64,000 bases of DNA, from positions 35,400-99,399 of IMG/VR virus record IMGVR_UViG_3300020419_000009; one strand, written 5' to 3'. This stretch comes from a virus. The notes under the pieces are model-generated. The model saw only the letters and a program-made list of their open reading frames with translations, ran no database searches and was not told the origin of the DNA. Positions within the stretch are counted from its first letter, which is position 1. Each line of letters begins with the position of its first letter. Of the stretch, positions 10,197 to 62,149 are shown one piece after another. Both the position numbers and the translations under genes were made by a program.

Positions 10197-10210
10197 GATA
10201 AGGAAGTACT

Positions 10211-25871: not shown

Positions 25872-26557
25872 TATTCAAAAACAGCCAACAAGATGTAAAC
25901 ATACATGAAGAAGACAATGTTAAAGTAGTTTCCTTAAAGATATCAGGAGGAGCAGATAGCGCCATAGTAGGATTTATGTTATCAAATTATGTAGCAGTTG
26001 AAAGACCGGATATAAAGATTATTCCTATAACAACTAATCATCCAAGAAAACCATACCAAGGTTTATTTGCTAAAAGGATTATTGAATTTTATAAAGAAAC
26101 ATTTGGTGATATTTTCGGAAAACATTATATTAATAATCTAGATCAAATAGCAACTAATGAAGATTATAATTCTGCCCAAACTGATATTTTTAATATAGCT
26201 AATAAAAATGAAAAAATAATATCCAGTTATTCCGGTATAACTTCTAATCCCCCAAAAGATGAAATGGACAAATTTGTAAACAAATATAAGAAAAACGAAA
26301 CAGGTCCTTATGACGATAGGAACGGAAAAAAGTTTTCTGTGATTGCCAATGGTCCTGGAGGCAGTAACGGCTCTAAGAGGCATCTAGTAAACATAGATAA
26401 AAAAGGTGTAGCAGAATTATATAATAATTTAGGATTGATGGATACACTTTTTCCTTTGACAAGAAGTTGTGAAGAAATAACAAATGATTTTAGCAGTCAT
26501 TGTGAACATTGCTGGTTCTGTAGAGAAAGGTATTGGGGATTTGGAAGATACATTTAA
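25868..26557 (+). CDS. QueC-like PP-loop ATP pyrophosphatase
   Basis: SGGADS PP-loop; C-terminal TRSC...HCEHCWFCRER zinc motif as in QueC. Confidence 0.7.
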   Translation: MIFKNSQQDVNIHEEDNVKVVSLKISGGADSAIVGFMLSNYVAVERPDIKIIPITTNHPRKPYQGLFAKRIIEFYKETFGDIFGKHYINNLDQIATNEDYNSAQTDIFNIANKNEKIISSYSGITSNPPKDEMDKFVNKYKKNETGPYDDRNGKKFSVIANGPGGSNGSKRHLVNIDKKGVAELYNNLGLMDTLFPLTRSCEEITNDFSSHCEHCWFCRERYWGFGRYI

Positions 26558-47669: not shown

Positions 47670-48653
47670 TTATGCATACTTGGCATTTAGTGCCTCAGCA
47701 TACTGTTGAACGTTGTCTGCTATTCTCTGCATGTCATGTTTTGCACAGAATTTCATTAAGTGTAATCCTACCTGTGATACCTTCTTAGGTTCCATAGCAT
47801 CTTCGACTACATCGTTTATAATAGATCTAATATTACCAGGTTGTGCAGATAAATCACATAGTGTAACATTACGATTGTAATCGTCTAACACACGATGTTC
47901 TACGCCTTCGTGATCAGTCCAACGTTGTAACATCATGTTATTCCAGTTAAATCCTTTTGTCTTTCTATCTTCAAATGCTTCTAATAAGCCTACCTTGTTC
48001 CGTGTGCCTTTTGTTCTTACACCAGGATATGCACTGAACACATTATCACTTGTATCACCTCTCATGCATTTTTCAAACAACATAAATTCTGGATTAGGTG
48101 CTAGTTTAGGATTACCTGTTTTCTTATCAATCACAGGCTTTTTCTTCTTATCGTCAAAATAACCTTCATGTGTAATTATAGTATTGCTTACACCATTGTA
48201 TTGTTTTACATTAGGTGCAATAAGTTGTGCAAAGTCACCATCAGTTGATATAATAACATGCTCATCGTTAGGGTGTGCTTGTACCCAACCTGCAATAAGA
48301 TCATCTGCTTCTAGTTGGGGATGTTGTAATACCGAACAATTTGTTTTACTAGATACAAAGTCTTTAAACTCATCAAACATCTCCCAGAACACAACATCTT
48401 CTTGTTGTTGTGCTTCAGTCTGTGCCGCACGAGCATCACTTCTATTTCTCTTGTAAGGCTCATATACATCCTTACGCCAGCTTCTACCTTCTAAGCAAAA
48501 CACAACATGAGCACCTTCAAAGTCAGCCCATGCTTTTCTAATACTACCTAAGGTAATATGGAAAGCCATACCCACCTTAGTATCAAGATCACCTCTTACA
48601 ACGTGTCTTGCTCTAAAAAAAGTATTTGCCGTGTCTACTAGAATGTATGTCAT
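47670..48653 (-). CDS. rnh: RNase H / 5'-3' exonuclease (T4 RNase H-like, FEN superfamily)
   Basis: LVDTAN, SWRK..Y..YK.NR, EADDLIA, STDGDFAQL, RGDTSDNV...PGV. Confidence 0.85.
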   Translation of the reverse strand: MTYILVDTANTFFRARHVVRGDLDTKVGMAFHITLGSIRKAWADFEGAHVVFCLEGRSWRKDVYEPYKRNRSDARAAQTEAQQQEDVVFWEMFDEFKDFVSSKTNCSVLQHPQLEADDLIAGWVQAHPNDEHVIISTDGDFAQLIAPNVKQYNGVSNTIITHEGYFDDKKKKPVIDKKTGNPKLAPNPEFMLFEKCMRGDTSDNVFSAYPGVRTKGTRNKVGLLEAFEDRKTKGFNWNNMMLQRWTDHEGVEHRVLDDYNRNVTLCDLSAQPGNIRSIINDVVEDAMEPKKVSQVGLHLMKFCAKHDMQRIADNVQQYAEALNAKYA

Positions 48654-49036
48654 TTTACCTCGCTCTTATCATCGCCTAAGTTACTAGTATTAATATAACC
48701 TGAATTTCGCTCTTTGTCAAGTCCTTCATCATCCAAAATCTGTCTAGCTATAGTTTTAAACCAACCATCTACGATTTCTTCAGGTGACGAACCCGAATAT
48801 CCTGCGTCTATCAGTTTTTCAACGAATTCATTGTTCCAATCAAGTTCAAAGAATCCGTTACGGATATTCTCTGGATTTACCTTAGTATCCAAAACTCCTA
48901 CCCAAGGCTCACCATCTTTAGTTGCCTTTTCTTTTTCTTTGGCAAGTACTGCTCTTCTTTCGTCTTCAGCACTAAGAGGTTTTTCTGTCTCTTTCTTTTT
49001 ACCAAAGCCTTTTATCTTATTAATGATATCTTTCAT
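48650..49036 (-). CDS. Hypothetical protein
   Basis: 128 aa ORF with AGGAGG RBS; EPWV...GFFELDWN..FV..L..AGY motif. Confidence 0.55.
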   Translation of the reverse strand: MKDIINKIKGFGKKKETEKPLSAEDERRAVLAKEKEKATKDGEPWVGVLDTKVNPENIRNGFFELDWNNEFVEKLIDAGYSGSSPEEIVDGWFKTIARQILDDEGLDKERNSGYINTSNLGDDKSEVK

Positions 49037-49046
49037 ATCACCTCCT

Positions 49047-49943
49047 TTATGTTCCTATTGCATTACCAAATAGATATACATGTACTCTTGCCGCCACGTT
49101 ATATCCTCTTTGAAATGCCATTTTTGCAACGTCACCTGCTGTCGTAGTCTGTTCTTCTTCTCTTGCACCAACAGGCATGACCCATATAGGCCAATCTACT
49201 CCCTCTGCTTTAAATTTCTCTATAACAGATTCCATTTCATCCCATTGTTGTTGTTCGGAACCTACAACAAATTTTAATTGTCCTTTATCAGAAAGTTCTG
49301 CATACTCGCCAACTACTTGTGGAAGTATTGCCTTCTTTGCTTCTTCACCTGCTACTGTCCATAACTTAGGACTACAACTAAAAAATACTTCTTCATCAAT
49401 TCTTTTAACCCATTCTTTAAAAGGATCTCTTAACTTTTGTGTACCATTAGTTTCAAAAGTCATTGAACTAGGCAAGTTACCTTGCTTTTCTAATTCTTCA
49501 TATATACCAACACTTGCTAACTGTCCTGTTATCATTAAAGGCTCACCGCCTGTAAAACATAAGTGTTGTGTCTGTTTGCTAACAGGATGTAAAAACAAAC
49601 CTTCTGGATTAGAATCTGTTCTTAGTATATCTACAATTTTGTTTGCTAATACACTAGGAGTTTCATGTCCCATAAGATGTTTGTATTTCTTTGCCCAAGT
49701 ATACGAACTATCACAACCTTTTTCCCATACAGGCAAGTCTTCTACTCTTTTTACTTGACTTACGTCATAATCTAAAAAAGGAAGATCATAAGTTTCTGGA
49801 TTTGTAGGATCTATTTGACCGAAGCCACTGCATTGTAAATTACAAAGAAAAAATCTTATCCAAGCAGTAGGTACACCTGTGTAATGTCCTTCTCCTTGAA
49901 TACTATGAAATATTTCAGAATAATATACAGGCTTCTCAGTCAT
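49047..49943 (-). CDS. queE: 7-carboxy-7-deazaguanine synthase (radical SAM)
   Basis: YSEIFHSIQGEG..TG.P..IRFFLCNLQC, with the third Cys (CDS) after an insertion; TGGEP, ETNGT, SPK, LKFVV, RVHVYLFGN. Confidence 0.85.
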   Translation of the reverse strand: MTEKPVYYSEIFHSIQGEGHYTGVPTAWIRFFLCNLQCSGFGQIDPTNPETYDLPFLDYDVSQVKRVEDLPVWEKGCDSSYTWAKKYKHLMGHETPSVLANKIVDILRTDSNPEGLFLHPVSKQTQHLCFTGGEPLMITGQLASVGIYEELEKQGNLPSSMTFETNGTQKLRDPFKEWVKRIDEEVFFSCSPKLWTVAGEEAKKAILPQVVGEYAELSDKGQLKFVVGSEQQQWDEMESVIEKFKAEGVDWPIWVMPVGAREEEQTTTAGDVAKMAFQRGYNVAARVHVYLFGNAIGT

Positions 49944-50130
49944 GCTTTACTTCTACCAATGGTTCAAAATAAGTGCTATCAGTATAATCACCACCTGGAG
50001 AAAATTTTCTAACAACAGTTTCTTTTACAAATTGATTGCCTTTTACAATGTATGTGATAAATTCTTGTTGCACCACACCTTTTGTATCTCTTTCAAAAGC
50101 TGATCTAAGTGGACCATCATCTATTACCAT
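49936..50130 (-). CDS. Small hypothetical protein
   Basis: 64 aa ORF coupled between folE and queE. Confidence 0.45.
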   Translation of the reverse strand: MVIDDGPLRSAFERDTKGVVQQEFITYIVKGNQFVKETVVRKFSPGGDYTDSTYFEPLVEVKHD

Positions 50131-50330
50131 TATACTATCTCCTCTACAATACCTAATATTTCTGCCAATACAAATGCAACACCAGAAAACATCATTAAAT
50201 AACCTGAATAAGCAATAATAATATCTGTGTAGTCATTCGCTGACCAAAGTTCGTAGCCTGCGTATGCTAGTACTCCGCCTGCTATAATTCTAAGAACACT
50301 CTTTACCATACTAACGGAAAAATGATTCAT
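50130..50330 (-). CDS. Small membrane protein
   Basis: 66 aa with two hydrophobic segments; AGGAG RBS. Confidence 0.5.
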   Translation of the reverse strand: MNHFSVSMVKSVLRIIAGGVLAYAGYELWSANDYTDIIIAYSGYLMMFSGVAFVLAEILGIVEEIV

Positions 50331-50342
50331 AATAATACTCCT

Positions 50343-51029
50343 TTATCTTGGTGCAAACTCTTGTTGCAGTTTAATATTATCCATAAACTCTTTTTTAGTT
50401 CCTGGATCTTCATTAAATGCTCCACGTAGTACAGTAGTCTGTGTCAAACTACTATGAGCACCAATGCCTCTGTTTTCACAACAACCATGTGTTGCTTGTA
50501 AGTAAACACCTATATTAGAACTACCTGTTGCTTTTTGTATTTCATTAGCAATTACATTGTTTAGTTCTTCTTGTAGTGTTCCTCTTCTTGCACACCATTG
50601 TGCTATTCTTGTATACTTAGAAAGTCCTATAAGTGTCTCAGCGGCAATAATACCAATGTATGCTACACCCGATACTGGCTGATGATGATGCGAACACATA
50701 CTTTTAATTTCACTTCTCACAACCAACATTCCTTTATAACCATCATCTACATGATTAGGAAATGCAGTTGCATTAGGCATAGGATTATACCTACCACTCA
50801 TAATTTCATTAATATACATTTTTGCTAGTCTTCTACCAGTGTCCATACTGTTAGGATCATTGTACCGATCAATAACTAGGCTATCTAATACTGCTTCAAA
50901 CTTTGGTGTTAGTTCTTCAATAAGTGCTTCCTTGTCACCTTCTTGTAATACATTACTAATGTTATCTCCTGCCCAATACCTAATGTTAGCATCTTGCAGT
51001 CTTGCTATAATTTCGTCACTTTTATTCAA
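50343..51029 (-). CDS. folE: GTP cyclohydrolase I
   Basis: SMCSHHHQP, IGLSKYTRI, LQEEL, ATHGCCENRG; TTG start after GGAGA. Confidence 0.9.
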   Translation of the reverse strand: MNKSDEIIARLQDANIRYWAGDNISNVLQEGDKEALIEELTPKFEAVLDSLVIDRYNDPNSMDTGRRLAKMYINEIMSGRYNPMPNATAFPNHVDDGYKGMLVVRSEIKSMCSHHHQPVSGVAYIGIIAAETLIGLSKYTRIAQWCARRGTLQEELNNVIANEIQKATGSSNIGVYLQATHGCCENRGIGAHSSLTQTTVLRGAFNEDPGTKKEFMDNIKLQQEFAPR

Positions 51030-51035
51030 TTTTCG

Positions 51036-51062
51036 TCTCCGATGTTAAGGCAGTGGATTGCC
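51036..51062 (-). promoter_or_regulatory. Structured 5' leader of folE (hairpin with loop complementary to the SD)
   Basis: GGCA-ATCCAC-TGCC hairpin then TTAACATC then GGAGA; loop TCC can pair with SD GGA. Confidence 0.4.
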
Positions 51063-51072
51063 ATTTCTGTTT

Positions 51073-51101
51073 ATTATACATGTTATTTAGGTCTTTGTCA
51101 A
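51073..51101 (-). promoter_or_regulatory. Consensus sigma70 promoter of the folE-queE operon
   Basis: TTGACA-17 nt-TATAAT, with a TAAATA inside the spacer. Confidence 0.75.
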
Positions 51102-51115
51102 CAGTTATTTTAAAA

Positions 51116-51934
51116 TTATTTGCCATCTTGCTCTTTAATATAGCCAAAATAATCAACTGCTATCTTCCTATGTATTTCTCTTATGTAGTGTTCTCTATCA
51201 ATTCTATAATGTTCGCTTTCAGTATCGATATCAAATCTTTCTTTCATAAACTCTTGAGCTGTCATAGGAGCTCTTACACAATCTATTTTTCCAAAGAAGT
51301 CTAGATTGTCTGGCATAAAAACACGTTCGTTGATATTCCACAGGTACCATTTCACGTTGTTTCTTCTGCATAATTCATTTATTGTAAACAGGTTCATACA
51401 ATAGTTCTTATATTGTAATACCGTTGTTAGCTCATGGTATATTTTTGTATATGTATATTTTTCATGAAATAAACTAAAATCATGTGTAGTATTCATATCA
51501 TCAAATTCAAAGCCCTTAAACTGTTCGTAATTTTCCGTACGTGGCTGTTCGATCATTTCAACATAGTTGTCAGAAACTCTATGATCTGTATATCTATGTA
51601 TAAGGTCGTCTTTTTCTAATGTGTCATCTAAAAAAAGATCGGATTTAGTAAATTCGCCTACGTCTAGTTCCCTGGAACAGGATAAAAGAAACCTGTTCCA
51701 GTAAGTTGATTGTATGAATACTTCGTCGAAATCTGTATATCGGTCAAACATTGTTTTTAACCAAACAGGATATTTGTCGTTACAACCACCTGGCATACTG
51801 TATATCACTGTTTTTTTATTGAAATGATTTGCATATATTTCTGCATAGTTATTACTTTGCCATGCAGATATCTTGCCTCCCATTTCGAAGTATCCGTGCG
51901 AGTGACTATCGCCTATGAATAGTGTTCTAGCCAT
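51116..51934 (-). CDS. SGNH/GDSL-like hydrolase or acyltransferase
   Basis: FIGDSHS near the N-terminus and DREH (DxxH) near the C-terminus; ATG 51934. Confidence 0.5.
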   Translation of the reverse strand: MARTLFIGDSHSHGYFEMGGKISAWQSNNYAEIYANHFNKKTVIYSMPGGCNDKYPVWLKTMFDRYTDFDEVFIQSTYWNRFLLSCSRELDVGEFTKSDLFLDDTLEKDDLIHRYTDHRVSDNYVEMIEQPRTENYEQFKGFEFDDMNTTHDFSLFHEKYTYTKIYHELTTVLQYKNYCMNLFTINELCRRNNVKWYLWNINERVFMPDNLDFFGKIDCVRAPMTAQEFMKERFDIDTESEHYRIDREHYIREIHRKIAVDYFGYIKEQDGK

Positions 51935-52136
51935 TAAAATATTTGTCAATCATAGACAGTCTGTCATCCGCCGCCGCCAATTTATCAAGCTCTGAAATTA
52001 CTGCCTCAGTAACATCTGAATGTTCACCAATACCTGCTGGCATTGTCTGATACACTTGAATGTTAGCTAAATGAACTGCAACTTCGCCTTCTGCTTGTTT
52101 CTTGGCCGCCTGTAGTATTGCGTCTCCAACTTTCAT
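51927..52136 (-). CDS. Small hypothetical protein
   Basis: 69 aa ORF (PAGIGEHSD motif) with ATGA overlap. Confidence 0.55.
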   Translation of the reverse strand: MKVGDAILQAAKKQAEGEVAVHLANIQVYQTMPAGIGEHSDVTEAVISELDKLAAADDRLSMIDKYFNG

Positions 52137-52492
52137 TTTTGCTTTTCCTTTCTGTAATTACCCTTGCTAGGAATGACATGACGTACTCCTCCTCTTGGGT
52201 CTTCCATATCCCCGTTTCTACGTGGAATTAAATGGACATGAGGATAATCAACACTTTGACCTGCTTCTTTACCTACATTTTGTCCTATGTTGAACGCATC
52301 ACAATATCCACGTTCAACCCAATCGTAGCCCCATTTGTATGCGGCTTCGAAACACTTTACTAGAGATTGCCAATTTTCTTCTTTGGGTACAAAAAGAACA
52401 TGTCCGTCTGTGACCGGATATCCGTCTCTAAAAACTGTAAACTCTCTTGAATCTATTAATATATCAGTCCAAGGTATATCTTTATATTCCAT
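52133..52492 (-). CDS. HIT-family nucleotide hydrolase
   Basis: DGYPVTDGHVLFVPK, NIGQNVGKEAGQSV, PHVHLIPRR (HxHxH-type). Confidence 0.85.
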   Translation of the reverse strand: MEYKDIPWTDILIDSREFTVFRDGYPVTDGHVLFVPKEENWQSLVKCFEAAYKWGYDWVERGYCDAFNIGQNVGKEAGQSVDYPHVHLIPRRNGDMEDPRGGVRHVIPSKGNYRKEKQK

Positions 52493-53066
52493 AATTAAAA
52501 CTCACCATTATACGTTCTTTATCTATCGTTTGCTGATGTACTTTGTGTAGCACATGACTAGGAAATATAATTAAACTTCCTGTTTCTGCAGAACAAGTTA
52601 CTTCGGGAGAGTTGAATTCTGTTAACCCTTTTACCCCAGTTCTTGGCCAATGACCTTTTTGATTACGATTTACAAACGTCAAACCAGGATGTGTTTGATC
52701 AGCTTGTACATAATATACACCACTCCACACACTAGGCAAATGGTGATGTTCTTCATGGTAAGTATGTTTTCTCATAATACTATACCAACTAGACTCTAAG
52801 ATTGGAGTGCCTTCTAACATTGTTTCGTTATGACACTTCATTATTACTTCATTTATAAATTCTTTGAGTTTACTTAATTGAGGAAGATCTAATACATTTG
52901 TATTAGCACCATAGGAAGTATATCCGTTAGCTGAATATCTAACTGGAGAAGGATCTTGTTTTTCTTTTTCTAATAATAAAGGAACAACATCTTTTTGAAG
53001 TTCTTGCGAATCCTCAAACTTTGATCTATAAACTTTTGTAGGAAAAATTAATTGTGCATCAATCAT
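52482..53066 (-). CDS. 2OG-Fe(II) oxygenase family protein (TIGR02466-like)
   Basis: IFPT..Y, SW, EEHHH..SVWSGVYYV, GSLIIFPSHVLHKV...ERIMVSFN. Confidence 0.7.
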   Translation of the reverse strand: MIDAQLIFPTKVYRSKFEDSQELQKDVVPLLLEKEKQDPSPVRYSANGYTSYGANTNVLDLPQLSKLKEFINEVIMKCHNETMLEGTPILESSWYSIMRKHTYHEEHHHLPSVWSGVYYVQADQTHPGLTFVNRNQKGHWPRTGVKGLTEFNSPEVTCSAETGSLIIFPSHVLHKVHQQTIDKERIMVSFNYGI

Positions 53067-53592
53067 AAGTGCCTACCCTTTCCCAAGGGTAAACTAGCCA
53101 AACATCTTCTTCTGCTTTGTTAACTTCGTGTGTAGAATAGTTTATTGCAAACTTAAAATCACTTGCAGAATTATCTGTTAACACTGCAAAACGTACATTC
53201 TCACACCAAACATCACGCCACCCTGTGTCACCTGGCATACAACTTTTTTCCCAGTCATCAACAATCCAATTGAACGTTGCTCCTGTGTCATTAATATCAT
53301 CTACTATTAGAATGTTTTTTGAGTCATTTCTTGGTTGTCCTTGTTGAAACATACCAAATGCATCTTCAGCCATCCAAGTATTACTTTCTAGTTTACTATC
53401 ATCTCTTAAACTTACTTTTATGGCTTCACAAGGTATACCAGTCATATTACTAATAATAGTAGCAGGAATATTACCGCCTCTTGTAATACCTACAATGTAA
53501 TCAGGCCGCCATTCGTCTTTGTACATTTGATTAACTATGCTTACACAACTGCGTTCAACGTCCTTCCAAGAATAGTAATGCTTCTTAACCAT
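53059..53592 (-). CDS. Type I phosphoribosyltransferase (xanthine/guanine PRT-like)
   Basis: VGITRGG, PRPP-binding ILIVDDINDTGATF, WLVYPWE. Confidence 0.8.
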   Translation of the reverse strand: MVKKHYYSWKDVERSCVSIVNQMYKDEWRPDYIVGITRGGNIPATIISNMTGIPCEAIKVSLRDDSKLESNTWMAEDAFGMFQQGQPRNDSKNILIVDDINDTGATFNWIVDDWEKSCMPGDTGWRDVWCENVRFAVLTDNSASDFKFAINYSTHEVNKAEEDVWLVYPWERVGTYD

Positions 53593-54079
53593 TAAGTTTT
53601 TCCTTCAAATAAGTTTCATTATGTACCCATTTATATCCTGCTTCTCTCCAATTATCTTTTGTAGCTGGTACCCAATCTACAAATCCCCATTCCATTCTCT
53701 TTTGTCCCATAAAGAATAAACTCCAGCAAGGAATGTTTTTACCATCTTTATCCTTTTCTAATTCTAACCAGTGCAGATCTTCTGCCTTTCTAAATCTAAT
53801 GTGTCCTGGACCACGCCATTCCTTTGTACTACCTACTACTGCTCCTTCTTGTGAAATAATAGGAATATGTTCCCAATAGCCACCTTTTAGAATTACTGCT
53901 CCCCAGTTCCAAGGATGATCATGTAGCACAGGCTCATCGCTCACTAGTATCTTGTGTAGTGTTATATTGAATGGAAAGTTTTTTCTTTCTTTCAAAAAAA
54001 GATAGTAACGAATAAGATAAGGAATCTTTCCGCTCCTATCAGTGATTATTCTTTTTCTATTCTTCAAAAAATTAATCAT
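53585..54079 (-). CDS. Cupin-fold protein
   Basis: LHKI...LHDHPW...ILKGGYWE...LHWLEL...WSLF..G...WGF. Confidence 0.6.
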   Translation of the reverse strand: MINFLKNRKRIITDRSGKIPYLIRYYLFLKERKNFPFNITLHKILVSDEPVLHDHPWNWGAVILKGGYWEHIPIISQEGAVVGSTKEWRGPGHIRFRKAEDLHWLELEKDKDGKNIPCWSLFFMGQKRMEWGFVDWVPATKDNWREAGYKWVHNETYLKEKLNG

Positions 54080-54509
54080 CTAGTTCGCCTGCTTGTACCT
54101 TTCCATCATAATCTTGTTGTGTCAGTTTATAAGCAAAAACAAAATGTTCATATGCTTTTTTTAATCCTGGATACTGCTCACACATTTTTTCTATTTTTTC
54201 TAAACTAGGAATATGTGTAACAAATTCTTTAGAAGGTATACAACTATCTAATCCCTCTAATGTAATACTATCATCCAGGGCATAGTCATTCATATTAACT
54301 GTTACTGTACCATCACTCATGCCACCTGAAAAAGTATAACTATGAGTATTATAACTTTCTACGGCTGAATCATAAGTAGGTCCGGTGATAGTTGTTACAT
54401 AATCACCACCTGTCGTAGGACATACAACGTCATATTTAAATGCTGATTGATCATGTCTAGGATCTTGTTGTTGCTTTATAAGTTCTGCTTCGTAATCATC
54501 ATCGTTCAT
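54072..54509 (-). CDS. Hypothetical protein
   Basis: 145 aa acidic ORF in the operon. Confidence 0.5.
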   Translation of the reverse strand: MNDDDYEAELIKQQQDPRHDQSAFKYDVVCPTTGGDYVTTITGPTYDSAVESYNTHSYTFSGGMSDGTVTVNMNDYALDDSITLEGLDSCIPSKEFVTHIPSLEKIEKMCEQYPGLKKAYEHFVFAYKLTQQDYDGKVQAGELDD

Positions 54510-55572
54510 TTTTCAACTCCTTATATAAAGCATTACCACTAAAAAATTGACTTGACAATCTTAGTTTTTGTTTAGGTAGTAAACGTTTATAGTCTTTGTA
54601 ATTTTCCATCATATCAACTATTTTATCCACTAGTTGCTGATAATTCTTCTTATAAGTTGTAAAGTTTCTTGTAAGATTACTTGCATACTTAAACTCTGGC
54701 ATTGCCATTTCGACATAGCTAAGTCTATCTGGAACCAACGGCAAAGTATCAACTAATACACCTTCATACCAACTTATACCTAAAGTTTCTTGCAAGTTAG
54801 CACTAAAAACAAGTTTTGCTTCACCTAATAGGTTATGATAGTCGTTTTTAGTTAGCTGTCTTTCTTGACAAACAATAAACTCATACTTGGGTAAACGTTC
54901 TTTTAAATCATAAAATATTTCAGGTTGTTTTTCAGGTGCAATTCTGTGCGGAAACAATATAATATTTTTCTTAGGCATATTTTTATATGATATAAGATCA
55001 CCTTCAAGATATTCCATTGGCCATCCAACTTTTTTAATACGTTGTTGGTTATTAAAAGCAGGATCTTTAGTGAAACCTTTAAAAACTCTTTCAAACATTT
55101 CTATATGAAACTGTGTAGCATAAAAGTTATCATCATAACAAGCAAACATAGATTGTTCAGCATGTCTTACCCATGGTTGATTCCCTATGATCCTACCTAA
55201 AAAATCTTGCGAATCATAACTACCAGCATGCCACAACCCACCAATGCGAATGTTAACACCCAATAGTTCTGCCATATACCGTAGTTGAATAACTGTAGGA
55301 TTCCAAGCATCGGTATACAGAAAATAATCGCCATTTTTAACAGTTCCATTACAAAACATTTCTCCGATTTGTTCTAATTGTTTACTTTTGTAAACATTAG
55401 TACCACCAAAATTAAGAAATGCTCCAGGCGTTGTTGCCTGTGGAGCATCTCCACCACTTATAGTAATGATTTCTTCATTTGTAGACTTCGCAAGTTGCTT
55501 TGGAAGATGTTCTTTCCATTGCTTTGTATAACGAGTGTCAACTGCTTCAATATCTACAATATGTATTGTCAT
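54499..55572 (-). CDS. GT-B fold glycosyltransferase (GT4-like)
   Basis: FPHRIAPEKQPE and FSANLQETLGISWYEG...LVPDRLSY (ExxGxxxxE donor-binding motif). Confidence 0.75.
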   Translation of the reverse strand: MTIHIVDIEAVDTRYTKQWKEHLPKQLAKSTNEEIITISGGDAPQATTPGAFLNFGGTNVYKSKQLEQIGEMFCNGTVKNGDYFLYTDAWNPTVIQLRYMAELLGVNIRIGGLWHAGSYDSQDFLGRIIGNQPWVRHAEQSMFACYDDNFYATQFHIEMFERVFKGFTKDPAFNNQQRIKKVGWPMEYLEGDLISYKNMPKKNIILFPHRIAPEKQPEIFYDLKERLPKYEFIVCQERQLTKNDYHNLLGEAKLVFSANLQETLGISWYEGVLVDTLPLVPDRLSYVEMAMPEFKYASNLTRNFTTYKKNYQQLVDKIVDMMENYKDYKRLLPKQKLRLSSQFFSGNALYKELKNER

Positions 55573-55829
55573 TTGTTTTTCCTAAAACTTTTAAAACCTT
55601 TCTTCCAAGGCTTGTTATAGTTTGGTTTCCATTTACGAGGACCAAACTTTTTGTACATACAAAAAGATTGCCATACTCTACTTTTTGTATCGTACAAGTC
55701 CTTTTCGTTATACACGTAACCGTTATAGCCGTATGCATAAGCATAGCGACAAAATTCTCTAAACTCTTCGAGATCAATAAAAATTTTTTCAATATTAGGA
55801 TTTTTAGAAAAGTAGTCACCCTGTTGCAT
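55569..55829 (-). CDS. Hypothetical basic protein
   Basis: ATG 55829 after AAGGAG; ATGA coupling to the glycosyltransferase. Confidence 0.5.
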   Translation of the reverse strand: MQQGDYFSKNPNIEKIFIDLEEFREFCRYAYAYGYNGYVYNEKDLYDTKSRVWQSFCMYKKFGPRKWKPNYNKPWKKGFKSFRKNK

Positions 55830-55842
55830 TGTAGTTCTCCTT

Positions 55843-56226
55843 TTAGCTAGGGTATTCAATGTGTGCACCGTTTTCACCATCTTCAGAAACATCAATATGA
55901 ACTTCACGTCCTGGATATTTTGCTTTGATCTTATCATAAAGATCATCAGCCATCATCTCACAGGATTTGTAATCAAGTTCTAATGTTTTTTCTGCATAAA
56001 GTTTTTCAATCCATCTTTTAAACTGGATAAATTCAATATCTCTATCGTTGTGTGTCACAGATATCGCAACTTTAAAATGGAAAATATGTCTATGTGGATA
56101 GCCTAAGAATGATACGTCATATTCATCACCAGTAGCCAGGCTTGGATCTTCAAGAGCCGCCGGATATTTATGAATACCTTCTTTTGTAAATGTAATCCAA
56201 ATCATTCTTTTTGCTTTAGCTTTCAT
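55843..56226 (-). CDS. QueD-paralogous T-fold protein (DpdL-like)
   Basis: EGIHKY, LGYPHRHIF (LxxxHRHxF instead of QueD CxxxHGH), DIEFI, SCEMMA, VSEDGENGA. Start uncertain: the track's TTG 56346 is the promoter -35. Confidence 0.65.
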   Translation of the reverse strand: MKAKAKRMIWITFTKEGIHKYPAALEDPSLATGDEYDVSFLGYPHRHIFHFKVAISVTHNDRDIEFIQFKRWIEKLYAEKTLELDYKSCEMMADDLYDKIKAKYPGREVHIDVSEDGENGAHIEYPS

Positions 56227-56317
56227 ATTTGCCTCTTCCTCTTCTTTAAGTCTCCTACCCATATAATTGTAATAGGATTCTTGTTTTGTGTCAGTTTCAC
56301 TTATACTACTTTCTAAC

Positions 56318-56346
56318 ATTATACTACCTTTAGTGTTCTTTGTCAA
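56318..56346 (-). promoter_or_regulatory. Consensus sigma70 promoter of the T-fold/GT/PRT/HIT operon
   Basis: TTGACA-17 nt-TATAAT. Confidence 0.75.
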
Positions 56347-56875
56347 GTATTATTGGTTGATCTTTACCGTATTCGTCCCACGATGTAAACTTTTTTCTAT
56401 CTTTGAGTTCAGATGCATAATACACCCATACACCTGGATTGGTTGCCTTAAAGTTTGTATCGTCAATTTTGATACAAGCATTATAATTAAGTTGTTCTAT
56501 GTAAGGAAGTTTTACTGAAATCATACTTATAAACTGGTCGTGTTCATTATATCCACTTTCTAGTACAAATTCATGAAATCTTACATCATAATCTAGTGTA
56601 ACCCAATATCCTGCTTTCAAAAGTTCTGTAACCATTTCGTCCCAGTCTTCTGATTCTTGTGATGTACCTAGGTCGCCTGTGATATTAAAACTTTGATTAG
56701 CACCAAGGTATATATGATCACAATCATTCCTATTTGCTAATTTTATAATATCACGATAAGGCTTTACTCCAACAACAAAAAGAGTTTTCTTATCATAGGC
56801 AGGAGTCTTTTCAACTTCTAGTCCTACAAAGTAGTCTATGTTAGTCTTTTCGCCGTCTATGTAGTCTCTATTCAT
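56330..56875 (-). CDS. Hypothetical protein between dpdA and the T-fold gene
   Basis: 181 aa ORF: GLEVEKTP...TLFVVG...HIYLGANQSF...KIDD..FKATNPGVW. Confidence 0.55.
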   Translation of the reverse strand: MNRDYIDGEKTNIDYFVGLEVEKTPAYDKKTLFVVGVKPYRDIIKLANRNDCDHIYLGANQSFNITGDLGTSQESEDWDEMVTELLKAGYWVTLDYDVRFHEFVLESGYNEHDQFISMISVKLPYIEQLNYNACIKIDDTNFKATNPGVWVYYASELKDRKKFTSWDEYGKDQPIILDKEH

Positions 56876-57050
56876 TTTTTAGCCTATCCTTTGCCACTAA
56901 TTTTTGTTTTTTTAAGTTTACGAGATGAACTTTGTGGCTGTAAGTTCTATCGTAATTCCGTTCTTTCTCTACTTCTTCTACTTTCTTAGACAAATAATCA
57001 TGTAAACCTGTTAATCGTTTTGCCTTTTTACTTAATCTTCCTGTCGCCAT
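56868..57050 (-). CDS. Small helical-hairpin protein (DUF465-like)
   Basis: 60 aa; H..L...V...E...LKKQKL..KD.L pattern. Confidence 0.45.
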   Translation of the reverse strand: MATGRLSKKAKRLTGLHDYLSKKVEEVEKERNYDRTYSHKVHLVNLKKQKLVAKDRLKNE

Positions 57051-57052
57051 CT

Positions 57053-58504
57053 TTATACCTCCTCAAACAAATTTCCAAATTGCGTTGTTGCATTGACTGT
57101 TTTCTTACCAACGGCACCTCTTGTACCGATGATGCTCATCCAAAATTTATTGAATTCTTCTATTACTGCATTTGCTTCATCTCTATTATCAGTAGCAAAT
57201 ATAGCCTCTACTACATCTCTAAAATACACTCTGTCAAAAGATTCATCTACTAACATTGAAGGCAAGATACCTTGATCATATTTTCTATTAGCTTCTTGTA
57301 CGGCATTTATGTGACTCCAAACATTATGTCCCATCTGTATTGCATAACTAAAAGAGTCCCAAGATGTTTTTCCTTCTTTGCCTATTTTGTTTACATCTCC
57401 TGGCTTGTAAATACAAACATCAGATACTTTTAAGTTTTGTGTCAGTGGAGAATCTGTAAAGTTTTTAAATATATTATCTTGCAATACTGCATCTTTAAAT
57501 AATCTATTATCAGTTGCATACTTTTTGTCATCAACTGATGGAACCATTCTATAAACCCATTTAGTTCTATCTTGTGTTTCTGTTTGTATGTATATTTGAC
57601 CATTTGCAGTTGCTAAGAAAGGAGATGCACAATCAAAAGTTATTGTAAAGTTTTCATTGTGATATTTACGAACTGCTCTTTGTACATCAGTTAATAATGT
57701 TGCCCACTCTAACTTACTTGTACCTAAGAAGTGCATAAAGTCATGTTTACCTTTTTCTAATAGTCCATCAAAACGTAATGCTACCAATCTTTTTAGTGCT
57801 AGATGTATGTCACACATATTCTGTCCACCCATTGACCAACCATTAAAATGATCTGTATACTTCTTTGGATCACAGTAATCTTTCATTTGTTGATACCAAT
57901 CGTCAGCGTCAGCATGATTCTCGCCTTGTAATACATTCAAGAACTTACAATTACCATTTCTATTTTTCATAAAGTAATCATTGTTTATTCTTGTAGCAGT
58001 TACGGCATCTTGATATTTCGTAATACCTGTTGCCTTTTGTCCTTCTGGTGAACGTGATACCCAAGCCGGAATATCAAGTATCATACCATAGTCCATATAT
58101 GCATCCATCCATGCAAGAACTTGTTCACGTTTCTTTTGTGCTTTAGGACAGTTAGGATCTTTCCAATCACCTTCCCATACACCCTTACCAATCTGGAAAC
58201 CACCGGAGTCACCTAGTAACCAACTGTTGTTTCTATCTCTGTTCCTAATCATATCTTCTTTAGGAGAATCTTTATTGATATCAAGTTCGGCATGTCCTGC
58301 ACTATAAAGAGTCCAGTGATAGTTAAACAAGCCATCTTTTTTGTTTAACCAGTTCATTGATTCCATTCCGTTAGGATAAGGAATACGTGTTTTATCTACA
58401 TACTCATCAGATCTTTGTTTTCCTACAAAAGTTGCATAAAATCCGCTAAGAGCTGGAAGAAATAATGCATAGTCCTTTTGTGCTTCTGTTAGATTAGTAT
58501 TCAA
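57053..58504 (-). CDS. dpdA: TGT-fold guanine transglycosylase, probably DNA 7-deazaguanine-inserting DpdA family
   Basis: GDSGGFQIG, MILDIP, NVLQG, SMGGQ, HFLGTS, TFDCASP and GHN motifs of the TGT fold; no CxCxxC Zn site; co-located with folE, queE, clamp and DNA polymerase. Confidence 0.7.
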   Translation of the reverse strand: MNTNLTEAQKDYALFLPALSGFYATFVGKQRSDEYVDKTRIPYPNGMESMNWLNKKDGLFNYHWTLYSAGHAELDINKDSPKEDMIRNRDRNNSWLLGDSGGFQIGKGVWEGDWKDPNCPKAQKKREQVLAWMDAYMDYGMILDIPAWVSRSPEGQKATGITKYQDAVTATRINNDYFMKNRNGNCKFLNVLQGENHADADDWYQQMKDYCDPKKYTDHFNGWSMGGQNMCDIHLALKRLVALRFDGLLEKGKHDFMHFLGTSKLEWATLLTDVQRAVRKYHNENFTITFDCASPFLATANGQIYIQTETQDRTKWVYRMVPSVDDKKYATDNRLFKDAVLQDNIFKNFTDSPLTQNLKVSDVCIYKPGDVNKIGKEGKTSWDSFSYAIQMGHNVWSHINAVQEANRKYDQGILPSMLVDESFDRVYFRDVVEAIFATDNRDEANAVIEEFNKFWMSIIGTRGAVGKKTVNATTQFGNLFEEV

Positions 58505-58702
58505 TTAAATGTCCGTCCTTACAATGTGTTTTCTTAAAGCTCTAACAAGTTCTTCAATTTTGTCTATTACAGATATCATATCTTTGTCTGTAATATACTT
58601 TTGTTTTTCTCTCAACTTGTCATACTCCTTAAGAGGTATAGTTACTGTGCTATTTTCATTTTCAAATGTTTTGTCATCATCATTAATATTAACACTTGTC
58701 AT
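58505..58702 (-). CDS. Small hypothetical protein
   Basis: ATG 58702 after AGGAG. Confidence 0.45.
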   Translation of the reverse strand: MTSVNINDDDKTFENENSTVTIPLKEYDKLREKQKYITDKDMISVIDKIEELVRALRKHIVRTDI

Positions 58703-58709
58703 AAAACTC

Positions 58710-59456
58710 CTATTTAGATTGTGCTGGTAATATGTAATCATATTGTGCAAGACCACTGTCTACACTGATCTGCATTGCTCCTTGATCACTAAGTGATACA
58801 GTTGCATTGCCATCTAAGTTTAATATAGCTTGTACTTGTGCAACAGGATAAGCCCAAGCATGAGCCAATGTACCTTCTACTGCATTTTGAAATACAAATT
58901 TACCTGCATGTGTGTTTGCATCACCAAAATGGAACACAAGATCACTAGTGCCGTTAGTTTCTTCAACCTTAACTGTAAAAACAGTTTCTTCTGAATGTGC
59001 CGCACTTTGTAATTTCATTCTATTAATAGATGCTATTGAAGGACTGAAGTTAACGTTCCAGTTAGCACCTTTAAACTTTACACTTTTAAGTTTTTCGTTA
59101 ATAATTTCTGTTACCATAAAACGGAAATCGTTTTGAAAGTCACCAGCTTCGTTCTCAAAATGTATTCCAGTAGGAACCTTTTCATTATTACGTTCAGCTT
59201 CTGTGATTGTAAGTTTACTATTTTTTTGATACTCTGGATTTTTCAAATGCAAAGCTAATTTATCTAAGTTCGGCATTCCAAAAATGTTATTTCCAAATTC
59301 AGCAACTTTGCTTTTTGTTTTTGCTGTCAATATTACACTTCTATCTTCAGCCATTGACTCAACAACAGTTGCCTCGTCAGTACCAGTTACTTTTACTAGA
59401 TTCAAAAATCCTAATGAATGTGTCTTAGCAACGATGTCTTGTAAAATATCTTTCAT
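58710..59456 (-). CDS. Probable DNA polymerase sliding clamp (gp45/PCNA-like)
   Basis: 248 aa two-domain-sized alpha/beta protein ending YDYILPA; near the DNA polymerase, with its own sigma70 promoter. Confidence 0.55.
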   Translation of the reverse strand: MKDILQDIVAKTHSLGFLNLVKVTGTDEATVVESMAEDRSVILTAKTKSKVAEFGNNIFGMPNLDKLALHLKNPEYQKNSKLTITEAERNNEKVPTGIHFENEAGDFQNDFRFMVTEIINEKLKSVKFKGANWNVNFSPSIASINRMKLQSAAHSEETVFTVKVEETNGTSDLVFHFGDANTHAGKFVFQNAVEGTLAHAWAYPVAQVQAILNLDGNATVSLSDQGAMQISVDSGLAQYDYILPAQSK

Positions 59457-59477
59457 ATTTCTTCTCCTATTAGTTGT

Positions 59478-59506
59478 ATTATACGATATTTCTTGTTAAA
59501 AGTCAA
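59478..59506 (-). promoter_or_regulatory. Sigma70-type promoter of the clamp-dpdA operon
   Basis: TTGACT-17 nt-TATAAT; AGGAG RBS downstream. Confidence 0.7.
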
Positions 59507-59910
59507 CAACTTTTTACCCTATTTCTAAGATCGCTTGTTGAAAACCTGTGGTCACGTTTATTGAAGTATAACATTATACTCCTTTTTTTACATATATCTT
59601 TACCTGTAAAATCTTTATCTCTATATTCTTCACCCAAAATTCTTACATCGATGTGATACATTTCGAGTATGTCTTCTAGATCTCTTTCTGTTTGGTAAGG
59701 AATGATCTCGTCAACATACTTTACACCATTTAGTTGTGCATGTCTTTCTACTAATGTTTGTACTGGGGAATTTTTTTCTTTCCTGTCTAAGGAAGGATCA
59801 ACTTGTAATCCACAAATAAGGAAATCGCATTGTTCTTTTGCTTCTCGGAGCATTTGCAGATGGCCTGCGTGTAGTAAGTCAAATGTTGAGCAAGTAAAGC
59901 CTATTTTCAT
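59503..59910 (-). CDS. Cytidylyltransferase (TagD/glycerol-3-phosphate CT-like)
   Basis: TFDLLHAGH (HxGH), ER, YVDEII, RDHRFSTSDLR. Confidence 0.85.
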   Translation of the reverse strand: MKIGFTCSTFDLLHAGHLQMLREAKEQCDFLICGLQVDPSLDRKEKNSPVQTLVERHAQLNGVKYVDEIIPYQTERDLEDILEMYHIDVRILGEEYRDKDFTGKDICKKRSIMLYFNKRDHRFSTSDLRNRVKSC

Positions 59911-60626
59911 TTTATGCCTCTATCTTTTAGAAACTGTGCTACTGTATGTTTTGGTGTAAAGCCTAAGTCTCTAAGTTTTTTTGTGTTTGCCTGTGTTATA
60001 TTTCTTTCGCCAATAGTATTTATTTTAACTGGTAGGTCCGGTCTTATATCTTGGATACTTACAGTTGTTCCTGTTCCTACATCTATAGGACCAGTTACTT
60101 TATCATCTATTATTATTTCTATTGCGTCACATAAATCTTCTATATGTATGAAATCTCTTTTGTGCGGAGTTACATATTCTAGTTTGTCATTTAATAGTTT
60201 ATCAAAAAACATATTGGCTCTTGGTATTGGACCATATACAGTATGAAATCTCATAAAACAACAGTTCTTATGAGGTATGTATTCAATAACATTCTTACTT
60301 GCCGCATATGGATTAAGATGTGGCTCGTATTGGGAACTAGATCCTGCTACTAGTACTCTAGCATTAGGATAATAGTTCAAAATTCTTTTTGTTCCTTCAA
60401 CGTTATTATTCCAATATTTGGCAGGATCTGCCAAACTTTCTCTTACACCACCTATACCTGCTAAATGTATTACCATCTCTACAACATTAGGGTGCGGTAA
60501 ATCGCAATCTAATATGTTATTTCCACTTTTTGTGTCTAGTCCTAGCAAATCGTGTTTAGTTGAAAGCCTTTGCCATAAAGCACTTCCTATAAAGCCTTCG
60601 TGTCCTGTTATTAGTATATTATGCAT
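59907..60626 (-). CDS. NAD-dependent nucleotide-sugar epimerase/dehydratase
   Basis: ITGHEGFIG, HLAG, SSS, YAASK (YxxxK), RFHTVYGP, RDFIHIED. Confidence 0.85.
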   Translation of the reverse strand: MHNILITGHEGFIGSALWQRLSTKHDLLGLDTKSGNNILDCDLPHPNVVEMVIHLAGIGGVRESLADPAKYWNNNVEGTKRILNYYPNARVLVAGSSSQYEPHLNPYAASKNVIEYIPHKNCCFMRFHTVYGPIPRANMFFDKLLNDKLEYVTPHKRDFIHIEDLCDAIEIIIDDKVTGPIDVGTGTTVSIQDIRPDLPVKINTIGERNITQANTKKLRDLGFTPKHTVAQFLKDRGIK

Positions 60627-61368
60627 CTTTTATCCTTTTGTTACTTTCTACAACTTGCCCTAATATTGAGAAAGGTTGTTTATAATATAAACCTGTGTAC
60701 ATTAATGCTTTTGTGTCCTTAGGAAAACATGCACCACCAAATCCTCTTTCGCCGTCGGGACCAGGAATTTGCATATGACTTTTAGTAATCCTTTCATCCA
60801 TGCCAACCAAGTCTGCTATGTTTTCATAATTAATTCCCAAGCTAGAACAAAAATCATAAACTTCATTAAAAAATGCTACCTTGGTTGCTAAAAAACTATT
60901 CCGTAAATACTTTGTTAATATTAATTCCTCAATCGTGCCATATACAGGCGTAAAACCTTTTGCTAATATAAAAATATCTTCCCAAAAATCTATATCATCA
61001 CCACCAAACAACATTGTTTTCTGGTTTTTAAAATCTTCATTTGCATTTGCGGCTGTCAAAAACTCGGGACTAAATGTAATGGATTTATTCATGTTGGAAA
61101 TTATTTCCCAACCTTCTAAGCTAATTGTACTTTTAATTAATATAGGTTTGTCACCTGGGCATTGTTTTATAACATCAAAAATTATACTCATATCACAAGC
61201 ACCTGTATCGGAACTTGGTGTGGGTACACAAACTATATACCCGTCTGATTTGTCGTCTATTACATCATCATTGTATTTAGGATCAACTATTTTAACGTCG
61301 TAGTAATCTTTTAATACATTGTGTACTGCTTTACCTACAAAGCCATATCCTATGAGTGTAAGTTTCAT
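60619..61368 (-). CDS. UDP-glucose/GDP-mannose 6-dehydrogenase family protein
   Basis: IGYGFVG, VCVPTP, IKST, SPEFL, KYLRNSFLATKVAFFNE, GFGGACFPKD; ATG 61368 after GGAGA. Confidence 0.85.
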   Translation of the reverse strand: MKLTLIGYGFVGKAVHNVLKDYYDVKIVDPKYNDDVIDDKSDGYIVCVPTPSSDTGACDMSIIFDVIKQCPGDKPILIKSTISLEGWEIISNMNKSITFSPEFLTAANANEDFKNQKTMLFGGDDIDFWEDIFILAKGFTPVYGTIEELILTKYLRNSFLATKVAFFNEVYDFCSSLGINYENIADLVGMDERITKSHMQIPGPDGERGFGGACFPKDTKALMYTGLYYKQPFSILGQVVESNKRIKDA

Positions 61369-61451
61369 AAATTTCTCCAACATAGGTAAGCATAAAATAA
61401 TCCACCTAGTACTAAAGTTAATAACATTATTTCTGCATCTGATATTATCAT
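61365..61451 (-). CDS. 28-aa single-TM microprotein (not in the ORF track)
   Basis: MIISDAEIMLLTLVLGGLFYAYLCWRNL; GGAG RBS; ATGA overlaps at both ends. Confidence 0.5.
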   Translation of the reverse strand: MIISDAEIMLLTLVLGGLFYAYLCWRNL

Positions 61452-61943: not shown

Positions 61944-62149
61944 TTAATTTCATCTCCTTCTTTATCATGATAAATTTCACCGGCCATAGCCTGTATTTGC
62001 TCTATGTCATGTTTGAGCATTGCATGGTCATAACTACCATCATGATTTTGATATCTTTTCCTATGAGCTAGTACGGCCATATCGTGCATTGCATTAATTT
62101 TGTTTATAAGTTGTTCTAAACTGTGTATCATTTTACTCTCCAAAGTCAA
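61940..62149 (-). CDS. Small hypothetical protein
   Basis: 69 aa ORF after the polymerase; start may be ATG 62131. Confidence 0.45.
   Translation of the reverse strand: MTLESKMIHSLEQLINKINAMHDMAVLAHRKRYQNHDGSYDHAMLKHDIEQIQAMAGEIYHDKEGDEIK

Follow-up and report, generated by a model that had tools for sequence, protein, structure and literature searches.

The window analysed here, the final 64 kb (64,000 nucleotides, positions 35,400 to 99,399) of the 99.4-kb viral contig IMGVR_UViG_3300020419_000009 of IMG/VR (CheckV completeness 26%), carries, within its replication operons, a DpdL-type 7-deazaguanine DNA modification module together with a dedicated glycosyltransferase (GT). From gene content and gene order, we infer that the module puts a glycosylated deazaguanine into DNA, and we give the step that places the sugar on the DNA base slightly better than even chances. 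The wider prediction is that a glycosylated 7-deazaguanine occurs in the virion DNA of this lineage and of phages PA5oct, ACP17, Phosso, X1 and BCSR5, and in the chromosomal DNA of bacteria with related islands, where it would act as a self mark. It would be the work of a hitherto unrecognised GT4 family acting with DpdA and DpdL, and such a sugar-bearing purine analogue would have no precedent in any genome; we hold this prediction to be evenly balanced between right and wrong. The first-pass annotation of this DNA had presented such a base as not known to be described, and the literature searched indeed holds no description of a glycosylated deazaguanine in DNA, nor any report that associates this GT with a deazaguanine module.

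The position of the GT relative to the deazaguanine genes was followed in all fetched loci, from which 38 GT genes were grouped into 20 clusters at 50% identity by single linkage. DpdL was found at no more than 3.7 kb from the GT in 18 of the 20 clusters, abutting or overlapping it in nine of them, and the remaining two run into contig ends; a DpdA-type gene was located at 6 kb or less in 14 of the 20. Among cultured phages, the order is DpdA-GT-DpdL in Pseudomonas phage PA5oct and p181-DpdA-GT-DpdL-QueE in Acidovorax phage ACP17, where p181 is a conserved orphan, whereas in Sinorhizobium phage Phosso the order is DpdL-GT with overlapping stop and start. The GT and DpdA are adjacent in Xanthomonas phage X1 and Burkholderia phage BCSR5, with DpdL within 3 kb, and in BUDD the GT is found within 3 kb of DpdA and/or DpdL. 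Metagenomic lineages were sampled through distant GT representatives taken by GT similarity alone, ignoring their context, and in every one with flanking sequence DpdL was present beside the GT, plus FolE, QueE and usually DpdA. When viral contigs were scanned, the single proteins P0237 and P0205 gave nothing and an alignment-based scan retrieved the loci. The same genes were followed in a survey of 40 related marine loci, each spanning the family B DNA polymerase gene (polB) to a 5'-3' exonuclease gene, and DpdA, p181, DpdL, the GT, a phosphoribosyltransferase (PRTase), FolE and QueE were kept in 40/40.

Phylogenetic profiling, proposed by the first-pass annotation as a check, thus placed the GT beside DpdL and/or DpdA in every lineage with flanks, so that it is not independently distributed. 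As judged from this comparison of gene neighbourhoods, there is a strong case that the GT belongs functionally to the deazaguanine module. The family is also a large one: clustering at 50% identity gave 1140 clusters, and the window lineage accounts for thousands of marine sequences. Some phages have two divergent GT paralogues, one by DpdL and one by FolE (L169:1584-2639 and 9986-11095; L170:4772-5956 and 10001-11095); this may be a hint that sugar is added twice or taken from two donors. DpdA is followed by another gene in Vibrio phage 2.275.O and also in Phosso (annotated as a primase); it was considered as a GT relative and rejected, as the comparison showed it to be unrelated.

Species-representative bacterial genomes were also scanned, and the GT was found in four alphaproteobacteria: Ochrobactrum sp. 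MYb379, a Rhizobiales isolate, Pelagibacterium and Methylobacterium. An operon of DpdA, Vut_1 (a YhhQ-like precursor transporter) and the GT is present in the first three, and DpdL precedes the GT in Methylobacterium. In the three islands with this operon, FolE, QueE and DpdL are absent and DpdA is the sole pathway partner of the GT besides the precursor transporter. Therefore, these islands point to a DNA transglycosylase plus a deazaguanine supply, and not to DpdL alone, as the constant partner of the GT. The loci (L199:3427-10825 in Ochrobactrum sp. MYb379; L198, L196 and L200) have integrases, GmrSD, an OLD-family nuclease or a VapE primase as neighbours, which marks them as putative mobile or defence islands. 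The DpdA-YhhQ-like-(DpdL)-GT islands may thus be a new self-marking system, akin to restriction-modification, that uses the same GT. They resemble bacterial Dpd (DpdA, DpdB, DpdC; products dPreQ0 and dADG), a self/non-self system in which DpdA also puts a deazaguanine in DNA, but they differ from it in that the GT replaces the tailoring enzyme. Neither DpdB nor DpdC turned up in Pfam scans of selected open reading frames (ORFs) by the bacterial GT loci, where no dedicated search for them was made. Genes for conserved proteins of unknown function were also seen at these islands, one of 495-895 aa on the opposite strand (L198-L200) and one of about 411-453 aa downstream (L198, L199).

The GT gene itself (54499-55572, on the minus strand, like all the genes of the module) encodes 357 aa, and its AlphaFold2 (AF2) model (pLDDT 95.5, pTM 0.92) has the two Rossmann domains of a GT-B fold. 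Its Foldseek neighbours in the Protein Data Bank (PDB) were retaining GT4 enzymes: BshA, MshA, glycogen synthase, PglA and PimB' (E 2e-11 to 6e-9, TM up to 0.68), as well as LmbT and SenB. Over 55 homologues with 27-50% identity, E270 was invariant, and H115, R210, K215 and E262 were present in at least 90%; as in other GT4 enzymes, E262...E270 would be the EX7E motif and the Arg/Lys pair would bind the donor phosphates. Pfam Glycos_transf_1 matched the window GT with 19.6 bits, below its 26.4 cut-off, and 32 of the 55 family members at E<0.01 (best 3e-8). Identity of the window GT was 43% to EST35_0317 of PA5oct, 47% to the Phosso protein and 36% to that of ACP17. On the basis of the model and its conserved residues, the protein should be an intact, active retaining transferase of GT4 type.

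A GT-fold protein that no longer transfers sugar and instead assists DpdA structurally or in handling DNA, much as bacterial DpdA is assisted by DpdB, could account for the tight adjacency to DpdA in PA5oct, ACP17, X1 and BCSR5 and for the inactivity of DpdA3 enzymes alone in E. coli (Cui 2023, PMC10516641). We consider this very unlikely, as H115, R210, K215 and E262/E270 are invariant or nearly so across the 55 sequences and several lineages have nucleotide-sugar enzymes within the module.

The acceptor of the sugar is where further explanations diverge. If the GT decorated a hydroxymethyl-pyrimidine, as in the T-even phages, its nearness to deazaguanine genes would be due to chance. All DNA glycosylation in the literature searched is on pyrimidines, and a cyanophage protein named 'DNA alpha-GT' appears among the distant GT-B matches (BFVD rank 42), although at a TM of 0.57, the generic GT-B level; neither the alpha- nor the beta-GT of T4 was among the PDB matches listed. 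However, restriction patterns of PA5oct DNA indicate G, not C or T, and the linkage of the GT is specific to DpdA and DpdL, so we give pyrimidine decoration hardly any credence. A hydroxymethyl-pyrimidine acceptor was also considered for the window phage and rejected, the 99-kb contig having no thymidylate-synthase-like hydroxymethylase gene. For PA5oct, a deazaguanine system has been noted computationally, the modified G has been inferred from restriction resistance and END-nuclease sensitivity alone, and the literature searched does not tie the GT to the G modification.

A small molecule that is kept out of DNA, such as the displaced guanine or an intermediate of pterin or deazaguanine type, would be another acceptor, the product being a soluble metabolite or a way of drawing off a by-product. 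The closest solved structures, BshA, MshA, LmbT and SenB, fit such a function, as do the mainly aromatic and acidic conserved residues of the N-terminal domain of the GT and the nature of DpdL, a putative paralogue of 6-pyruvoyl-tetrahydropterin synthase (PTPS) and QueD that is found beside FolE in many loci. A biochemical precedent also exists in huimycin biosynthesis, in which HuiG (PF13439) transfers a sugar from UDP-GlcNAc onto a free 7-deazaguanine derivative. The GTs of huimycin and dapiramicin share with the window protein the GT-B fold and the Glyco_transf_4 type, and they act directly on a base derived from 7-deazaguanine; in contrast to it, they yield free secondary metabolites of actinomycetes from preQ0 and their clusters have no DpdA. 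Against a purely soluble product, DpdA is found within 6 kb in 14 of the 20 GT clusters and, with the precursor transporter, is the GT's only pathway partner in three bacterial islands; the benefit of a soluble glycoside to a phage is not apparent. We rate this explanation as unlikely, and a small-molecule acceptor is in any case also compatible with the preferred reading, a glycosylated deazaguanine in DNA, if the base is glycosylated before insertion. Net charge did not separate DNA-acting from small-molecule GTs, and the DpdA proteins are just as acidic.

The base to be glycosylated was approached through the T-fold gene (55843-56226, minus strand), which encodes about 127 aa and matched phrog_17812 (E 3e-35). 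The protein has the motif LGYPHRHIF, that is, LxxxHRHxF in place of the CxxxHGH of QueD, with HFH at this spot in PA5oct and Ahp1; H19, H45, H47, SCE and E115 were invariant across its homologues. By tblastn, it was 36% identical to DpdL of phage phiST (CGPG_00067, E 2e-10) and 54-71% to the proteins of ACP17 (54%), PA5oct and Phosso. No Pfam PTPS match was obtained, and the best PDB sequence match of its profile was weak (2dj6, E 0.04), to Pyrococcus protein PH0634, a presumed PTPS homologue. Because of the motif, the PHROG family and the identity to CGPG_00067, the T-fold protein is, by homology, DpdL, the proposed decarboxylase of 7-carboxy-7-deazaguanine (CDG) in the pathway to 2'-deoxy-7-deazaguanosine (dDG). 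It had been called simply a QueD paralogue in the first-pass annotation, but the protein belongs to a published pathway, in which DpdL was defined as a QueD paralogue and proposed to decarboxylate CDG, yielding dDG (Cui 2023, PMC10516641). The 167-aa ORF assigned to it earlier was also too long, as its TTG 'start' is the -35 hexamer of a promoter and the real start is at about 56226, as in the homologues. In Vibrio phage Bakedbeans, DpdL is the C-terminal domain of a 383-aa fusion (gp176, L177:5212-6363) with an N-terminal part of about 260 aa.

CDG synthesis is represented by FolE and QueE. FolE, a GTP cyclohydrolase I (50343-51029, minus strand), matched PF01227 (E 2e-37, 128.8 bits versus a gathering threshold of 27) and NF006824 (E 9e-40). 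The QueE-like radical-SAM CDG synthase (49047-49943, minus strand) matched phrog_2076 over its full length (E 4e-53) and was 39-41% identical to QueE of PA5oct and Vibrio phage 2.275.O; five NCBIfam QueE models matched in part (E about 1e-11, all below their cut-offs), and Pfam gave no match. The lack of canonical QueD, QueF and QueC in the cluster, reported earlier, was confirmed and extends over the whole 99-kb contig, itself about 26% of the genome. Therefore, with FolE, QueE, DpdL and DpdA and without QueC, the base system corresponds to the published dDG pathway; the base-replacement system is thus already known and the GT extension is new. The first-pass annotation named dDG among the known phage bases and yet did not assign it to this cluster. 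In an island of the window rich in radical-SAM and GT genes, a 238-aa ORF weakly resembles the C-terminal portion of QueC at 26384-26548 (E 5e-4, below cut-off), which might have a bearing on the identity of the deazaguanine.

In phiST, dDG was measured as a full replacement of dG (Cui 2023, PMC10516641), this paper being the only one in the literature searched to treat DpdL and DpdA3. The phiST system (FolE, QueD, QueE, DpdL and DpdA3; PMC10516641) resembles the window module in CDG synthesis without QueC, in a T-fold DpdL with the LxxxH(R/F)HxF motif, in a divergent TGT-fold DpdA undetected by Pfam and in having replication genes as neighbours. In contrast, phiST has no GT, p181 or PRTase, its DpdA has 259 aa and its DNA was measured to contain plain dDG, the window module differing from it by the addition of the conserved GT. 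This likeness makes it conceivable that the window phage has an ordinary phiST-type dDG system and that the GT and sugar genes have another function, such as glycosylating the virion or the host envelope, and do no more than share the early and middle operons with it. FolE, QueE, DpdL and DpdA without QueC are exactly the published dDG gene set (PMC10516641), jumbo phages often have clusters of GT and nucleoside diphosphate (NDP)-sugar genes ascribed to the modification of surface polysaccharides, and the three sugar genes here vary among relatives. We nevertheless find this improbable, as the GT stays by DpdL or DpdA despite extensive rearrangement in about 20 lineages, their hosts ranging from Pseudomonas to marine bacteria, and such constancy would be unexpected for an unrelated surface GT; moreover, bacteria have DpdA-YhhQ-like-GT operons too, and phiST itself has no GT.

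The DpdA-like protein (483 aa; 57053-58504, minus strand) gave no match to PF01702 (TGT) at E<=0.01, and none was found at E<=1 across the contig; its NCBIfam search and its profile search of PDB sequences were also empty, which left the fold as the main evidence. The AF2 model, obtained with a shallow alignment, had a pTM of 0.66 and a pLDDT of 59, and its top 50 Foldseek matches in the PDB were all to the TGT of Z. mobilis (E about 3e-6). With VIA-align, the model gave Z scores of 15.2 for ArcTGT, 13.6 for TGT, 13.5 for 7ui4, the DNA preQ0 insertase DpdA, and 12.6 for QTRT2, versus 12.4 or less for generic TIM barrels. A feature search of the ESM Atlas reached a viral cluster labelled in part as TGT. 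Among homologues with 26-92% identity, D99 in GDSGGFQ, D144 and D291 in FDCASP were invariant; the GDSGGFQ and FDCASP motifs are presumably equivalent to those of the TGT catalytic residues Asp102 and Asp280. No invariant cysteine of a CxCxxC...H zinc site was present in two alignments of the homologues.

The protein is 36% identical to EST35_0316 of PA5oct, and single linkage by BLAST joined it to the DpdA of ACP17 and X1 via the metagenomic intermediates L169 and L170. Direct BLAST against phiST DpdA gave no match, and the hidden Markov model match to phiST is circular, with phiST in the training set. The aligned homologues measure 402-596 aa, versus 259 aa in phiST. On the modelled fold, the aspartate motifs and the linkage to ACP17 and X1, we accept the 483-aa protein as a predicted enzyme of DpdA type, probably akin to the published DpdA3 group, which was likewise recognised only via HHpred (Cui 2023, PMC10516641). 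The DpdA-like protein ends in ...QFGNLFEEV (57053-57080) and the polymerase in ...TFNTLFDFGE (62133-62160), and FNSLFD is found near the C-terminus of PA5oct DpdA.

In the proposed mechanism, FolE and QueE would, by the established functions of their families, make CDG from GTP, with QueD provided by the host or by the unseen part of the genome, and DpdL would decarboxylate CDG to 7-deazaguanine, as proposed in the literature. The TGT-fold DpdA-like enzyme, again by the function established for its family, would exchange guanine in DNA for the deazaguanine, and the GT would move a sugar from a nucleotide-sugar onto it, either as the free base before insertion or as the base already in DNA. Both routes would end in a glycosylated deazapurine in virion DNA, expected to act as a shield against restriction and other DNA-targeting defences. 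The displaced guanine would be returned to GMP by the Gpt-like PRTase, pulling the exchange forward and refilling the GTP pool, and the lineage-variable dehydrogenase, epimerase and nucleotidyltransferase would tailor the sugar donor.

Glycosylation before insertion would fit the small-molecule GT4 neighbours of the GT, the HuiG precedent, the longer DpdA-like proteins and the negative outcome with DpdL plus DpdA alone in E. coli, whereas glycosylation after insertion is suggested by analogy with T4. In the heterologous tests, DpdL and DpdA of ACP17 alone produced no dDG in E. coli (Cui 2023, PMC10516641), a result that would fit a missing component. The T4 system, with its glucosyl-hydroxymethylcytosine, is alike in that a phage GT-B enzyme and a nucleotide-sugar would decorate a non-canonical base as an anti-restriction shield. 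It is unlike in that T4 builds its pyrimidine, with a hydroxymethyl group as acceptor, at the nucleotide level, whereas the window base would be a purine analogue put in place by base exchange, and in that the window GT is of GT4 type, with no specific similarity to the alpha- or beta-GT of T4 among the PDB and BFVD matches listed.

Several points weigh against a glycosylated deazaguanine in DNA. The weakest link is chemical: 7-deazaguanine has no hydroxyl or amine at C7 and would offer only C7/C8-H, N2 and O6, so that a C-glycoside made by a retaining GT4 would be unprecedented and a sugar on N2 would sit in the minor groove. The closest solved folds to the GT are small-molecule GT4 enzymes and not DNA glucosyltransferases, the DpdA-like model is of low confidence (pLDDT 59), and QueD was not found on the contig. 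The decarboxylation by DpdL is a proposal of the literature, and heterologous tests of it failed (PMC10516641). The nucleotide-sugar genes vary, two related loci keeping the GT with none of the three, and for the GT-bearing phages the case would be comparative and not chemical. Finally, about half of the DpdL-bearing cultured phage lineages have no GT, among them phiST and its relatives (with measured dDG), RHph_I1_18, Ahp1 and Bakedbeans; the sugar step would therefore be optional. On the supporting side, phiST, with its plain dDG, serves as a contrast without the GT, and so does Vibrio phage 2.275.O, which pairs this type of DpdA with QueC and QueF and lacks both DpdL and the GT.

The nucleotide-sugar genes comprise a truncated NDP-sugar dehydrogenase-like gene (60619-61383, within an ORF that extends to 61551; PF00984, PF03721; TIGR03026 E 5e-36 over profile positions 75-298 of 413), a short NAD-dependent epimerase/dehydratase of the short-chain dehydrogenase/reductase type (59907-60626; PF01370 E 2e-24) and a cytidylyl/adenylyltransferase-like gene (59503-59910; PF01467 E 1e-14), all on the minus strand. 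The last of these could be of the RfaE domain II or the TagD type, which match equally well (TIGR02199 E 1e-19; TIGR01518 E 1e-18). Of the 40 related loci, 38 have the epimerase, about 28 the cytidylyltransferase and about 15 the dehydrogenase. The 'dedicated nucleotide-sugar supply' of the first-pass annotation was thus an overstatement: the trio is accessory, and 2 of the 40 loci have the GT without any of it.

Sugar enzymes nevertheless recur in the module elsewhere, which fits a lineage-specific tailoring of the donor. On a 286-kb viral contig (L192:7989-10488), a full-length epimerase/4,6-dehydratase (330 aa, PF01370 E 2e-52) is encoded between the GT and DpdL, and in locus L195 a truncated dehydrogenase-like gene (3145-3972) and a homologue of the cupin-like gene lie between FolE and QueD. 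The dehydrogenase-like protein has no C-terminal UDP-binding domain in either the window phage or the independent lineage L195, and it may not be a conventional UDP-glucose dehydrogenase.

The Gpt-like purine PRTase gene (53059-53592, minus strand; PF00156 E 2e-10; best NCBIfam match xanthine PRTase, E 3e-12, below cut-off), besides its presence in all the related loci, was found in PA5oct, L182, L184, L185 and L192, and it probably salvages the guanine set free by base exchange. A role like that of TubE in tubercidin biosynthesis, in which it would make a deazaguanine nucleotide, is also conceivable. The orphan p181 (56330-56875, minus strand), with an invariant motif of the type KIDDxDFxATNPGVW, has homologues beside DpdA or DpdL in ACP17, L183, L184, L185 and L193, and in at least six lineages in all; its Pfam and PDB searches were empty, and the ESM Atlas gave scores of up to 0.83 and no usable match.

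Other genes of the region are less constant. The HIT-family nucleotide hydrolase/transferase gene (52133-52492; PF01230 E 8e-10) was found in the majority of related loci and again in L182 and L184, whereas the 2-oxoglutarate (2OG)-Fe(II) oxygenase gene (52482-53066; PF13759 E 7e-20; TIGR02466) was found in about 10 of the 40 and a 277-aa ORF (51116-51949) in about half. The idea that the base is further acylated or hydroxylated, put forward earlier, finds no comparative support, the oxygenase and the 277-aa gene being variable. The latter had been labelled 'SGNH', a putative label that was not upheld, as the ORF has a GDS-like motif alone. A cupin-like gene (164 aa, 53585-54079) matched phrog_4786, named 'cysteine dioxygenase' (E 4e-29), and the earlier 'cupin' label draws on that name and on no other match. 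Between it and the GT there is an acidic 145-aa ORF (54072-54509), variable among relatives, which had been passed over together with several small ORFs; Pfam, PHROG and NCBIfam searches gave no family match for this or for the 277-aa ORF. A small basic ORF of uncertain start (55569-55830) is located between DpdL and the GT, its stop overlapping the GT start, and had tblastn matches in 80 related loci at about 47% identity. All the genes of this paragraph are on the minus strand.

If the glycosylated base is confirmed, its meaning would go beyond this phage. Among the known shields of phage DNA against nucleases, the two strongest are the replacement of guanine by a deazaguanine and the decoration with sugars, and no phage is known to combine them; if true, it would be a new DNA base, a sugar-bearing purine analogue. 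Such a base would account for the failure of DpdL plus DpdA alone in heterologous tests and would identify the modified G of PA5oct, a therapeutic candidate. Given the 1140 GT clusters and the thousands of marine sequences of the window lineage, it could be common in ocean viromes, and the bacterial DpdA-YhhQ-like-GT islands suggest the same chemistry on the host side. It would also be relevant to tools for sequencing, restriction and CRISPR, and the existence of cultured phages with the GT makes the hypothesis readily testable.

The source of the window would be an uncultured marine jumbo phage with a genome of about 350-400 kb, as implied by extrapolation from the CheckV value, and its G+C content is about 33%. 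A megablast of the 12.5-kb region against phage records gave no match, and no cultured phage is alike at the DNA level. At the protein level, the closest cultured relatives were PA5oct, Phosso and Vibrio phage 2.275.O, with 41-53% identity for the polymerase and 29-36% for the DpdA-like protein; the window phage is a distant relative of PA5oct, the nearest cultured one. PA5oct (Wroclawvirus) shares the synteny of polymerase, 248-aa protein, DpdA, GT, DpdL, PRTase-like protein, QueE and RNase H, with 36-58% identity, but has no nucleotide-sugar trio at its locus. The DpdA-like protein was encoded on about 600 IMG/VR stretches, the best 80 of which were all at least 80% identical to the window protein, and a search with the GT in aquatic metagenomes gave at least 8000 matches, the window lineage being very abundant there.

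The polymerase gene (62133-63998, minus strand; PF00136 E 7e-36; about 50% identity to the polymerases of PA5oct and Phosso) runs past the end of the window. Downstream of the sugar genes, a conserved 248-aa protein is encoded (58710-59456, minus strand), whose homologues come after the polymerase in PA5oct, Phosso and Vibrio phage 2.275.O. The putative label 'clamp' given to it earlier was not sustained: it matched phrog_12062, of unknown function, and a profile search of the PDB and an hhalign comparison with the T4-type clamp of RHph_I1_18 found nothing, while elsewhere it is annotated as a clamp in Phosso alone and as a structural protein in PA5oct. In contrast, independent matches agreed with the earlier calls for polB, the sugar trio, the TGT/DpdA-like, T-fold and GT-B proteins, the PRTase, the 2OG oxygenase, HIT, FolE and QueE.

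The genes of the module form three tightly packed runs on the minus strand, each headed by a sigma-70-type promoter, and the three promoters claimed earlier were all recovered on that strand. The first (TTGACT-17-TATAAT, 11/12; 59506-59478) lies ahead of the 248-aa gene, the second (TTGACA-17-TATAAT, 12/12; 56346-56318) lies ahead of DpdL and overlaps the 3' end of the p181 gene, and the third, a perfect consensus (12/12; 51101-51073), lies ahead of folE. Promoter-like sites overall were no more numerous than expected from shuffled sequence, and perfect matches were rare. A fourth strong promoter (11/12) was seen at 48720-48692, within the 5' end of a 128-aa ORF (48650-49036) and upstream of the 5'-3' exonuclease gene.

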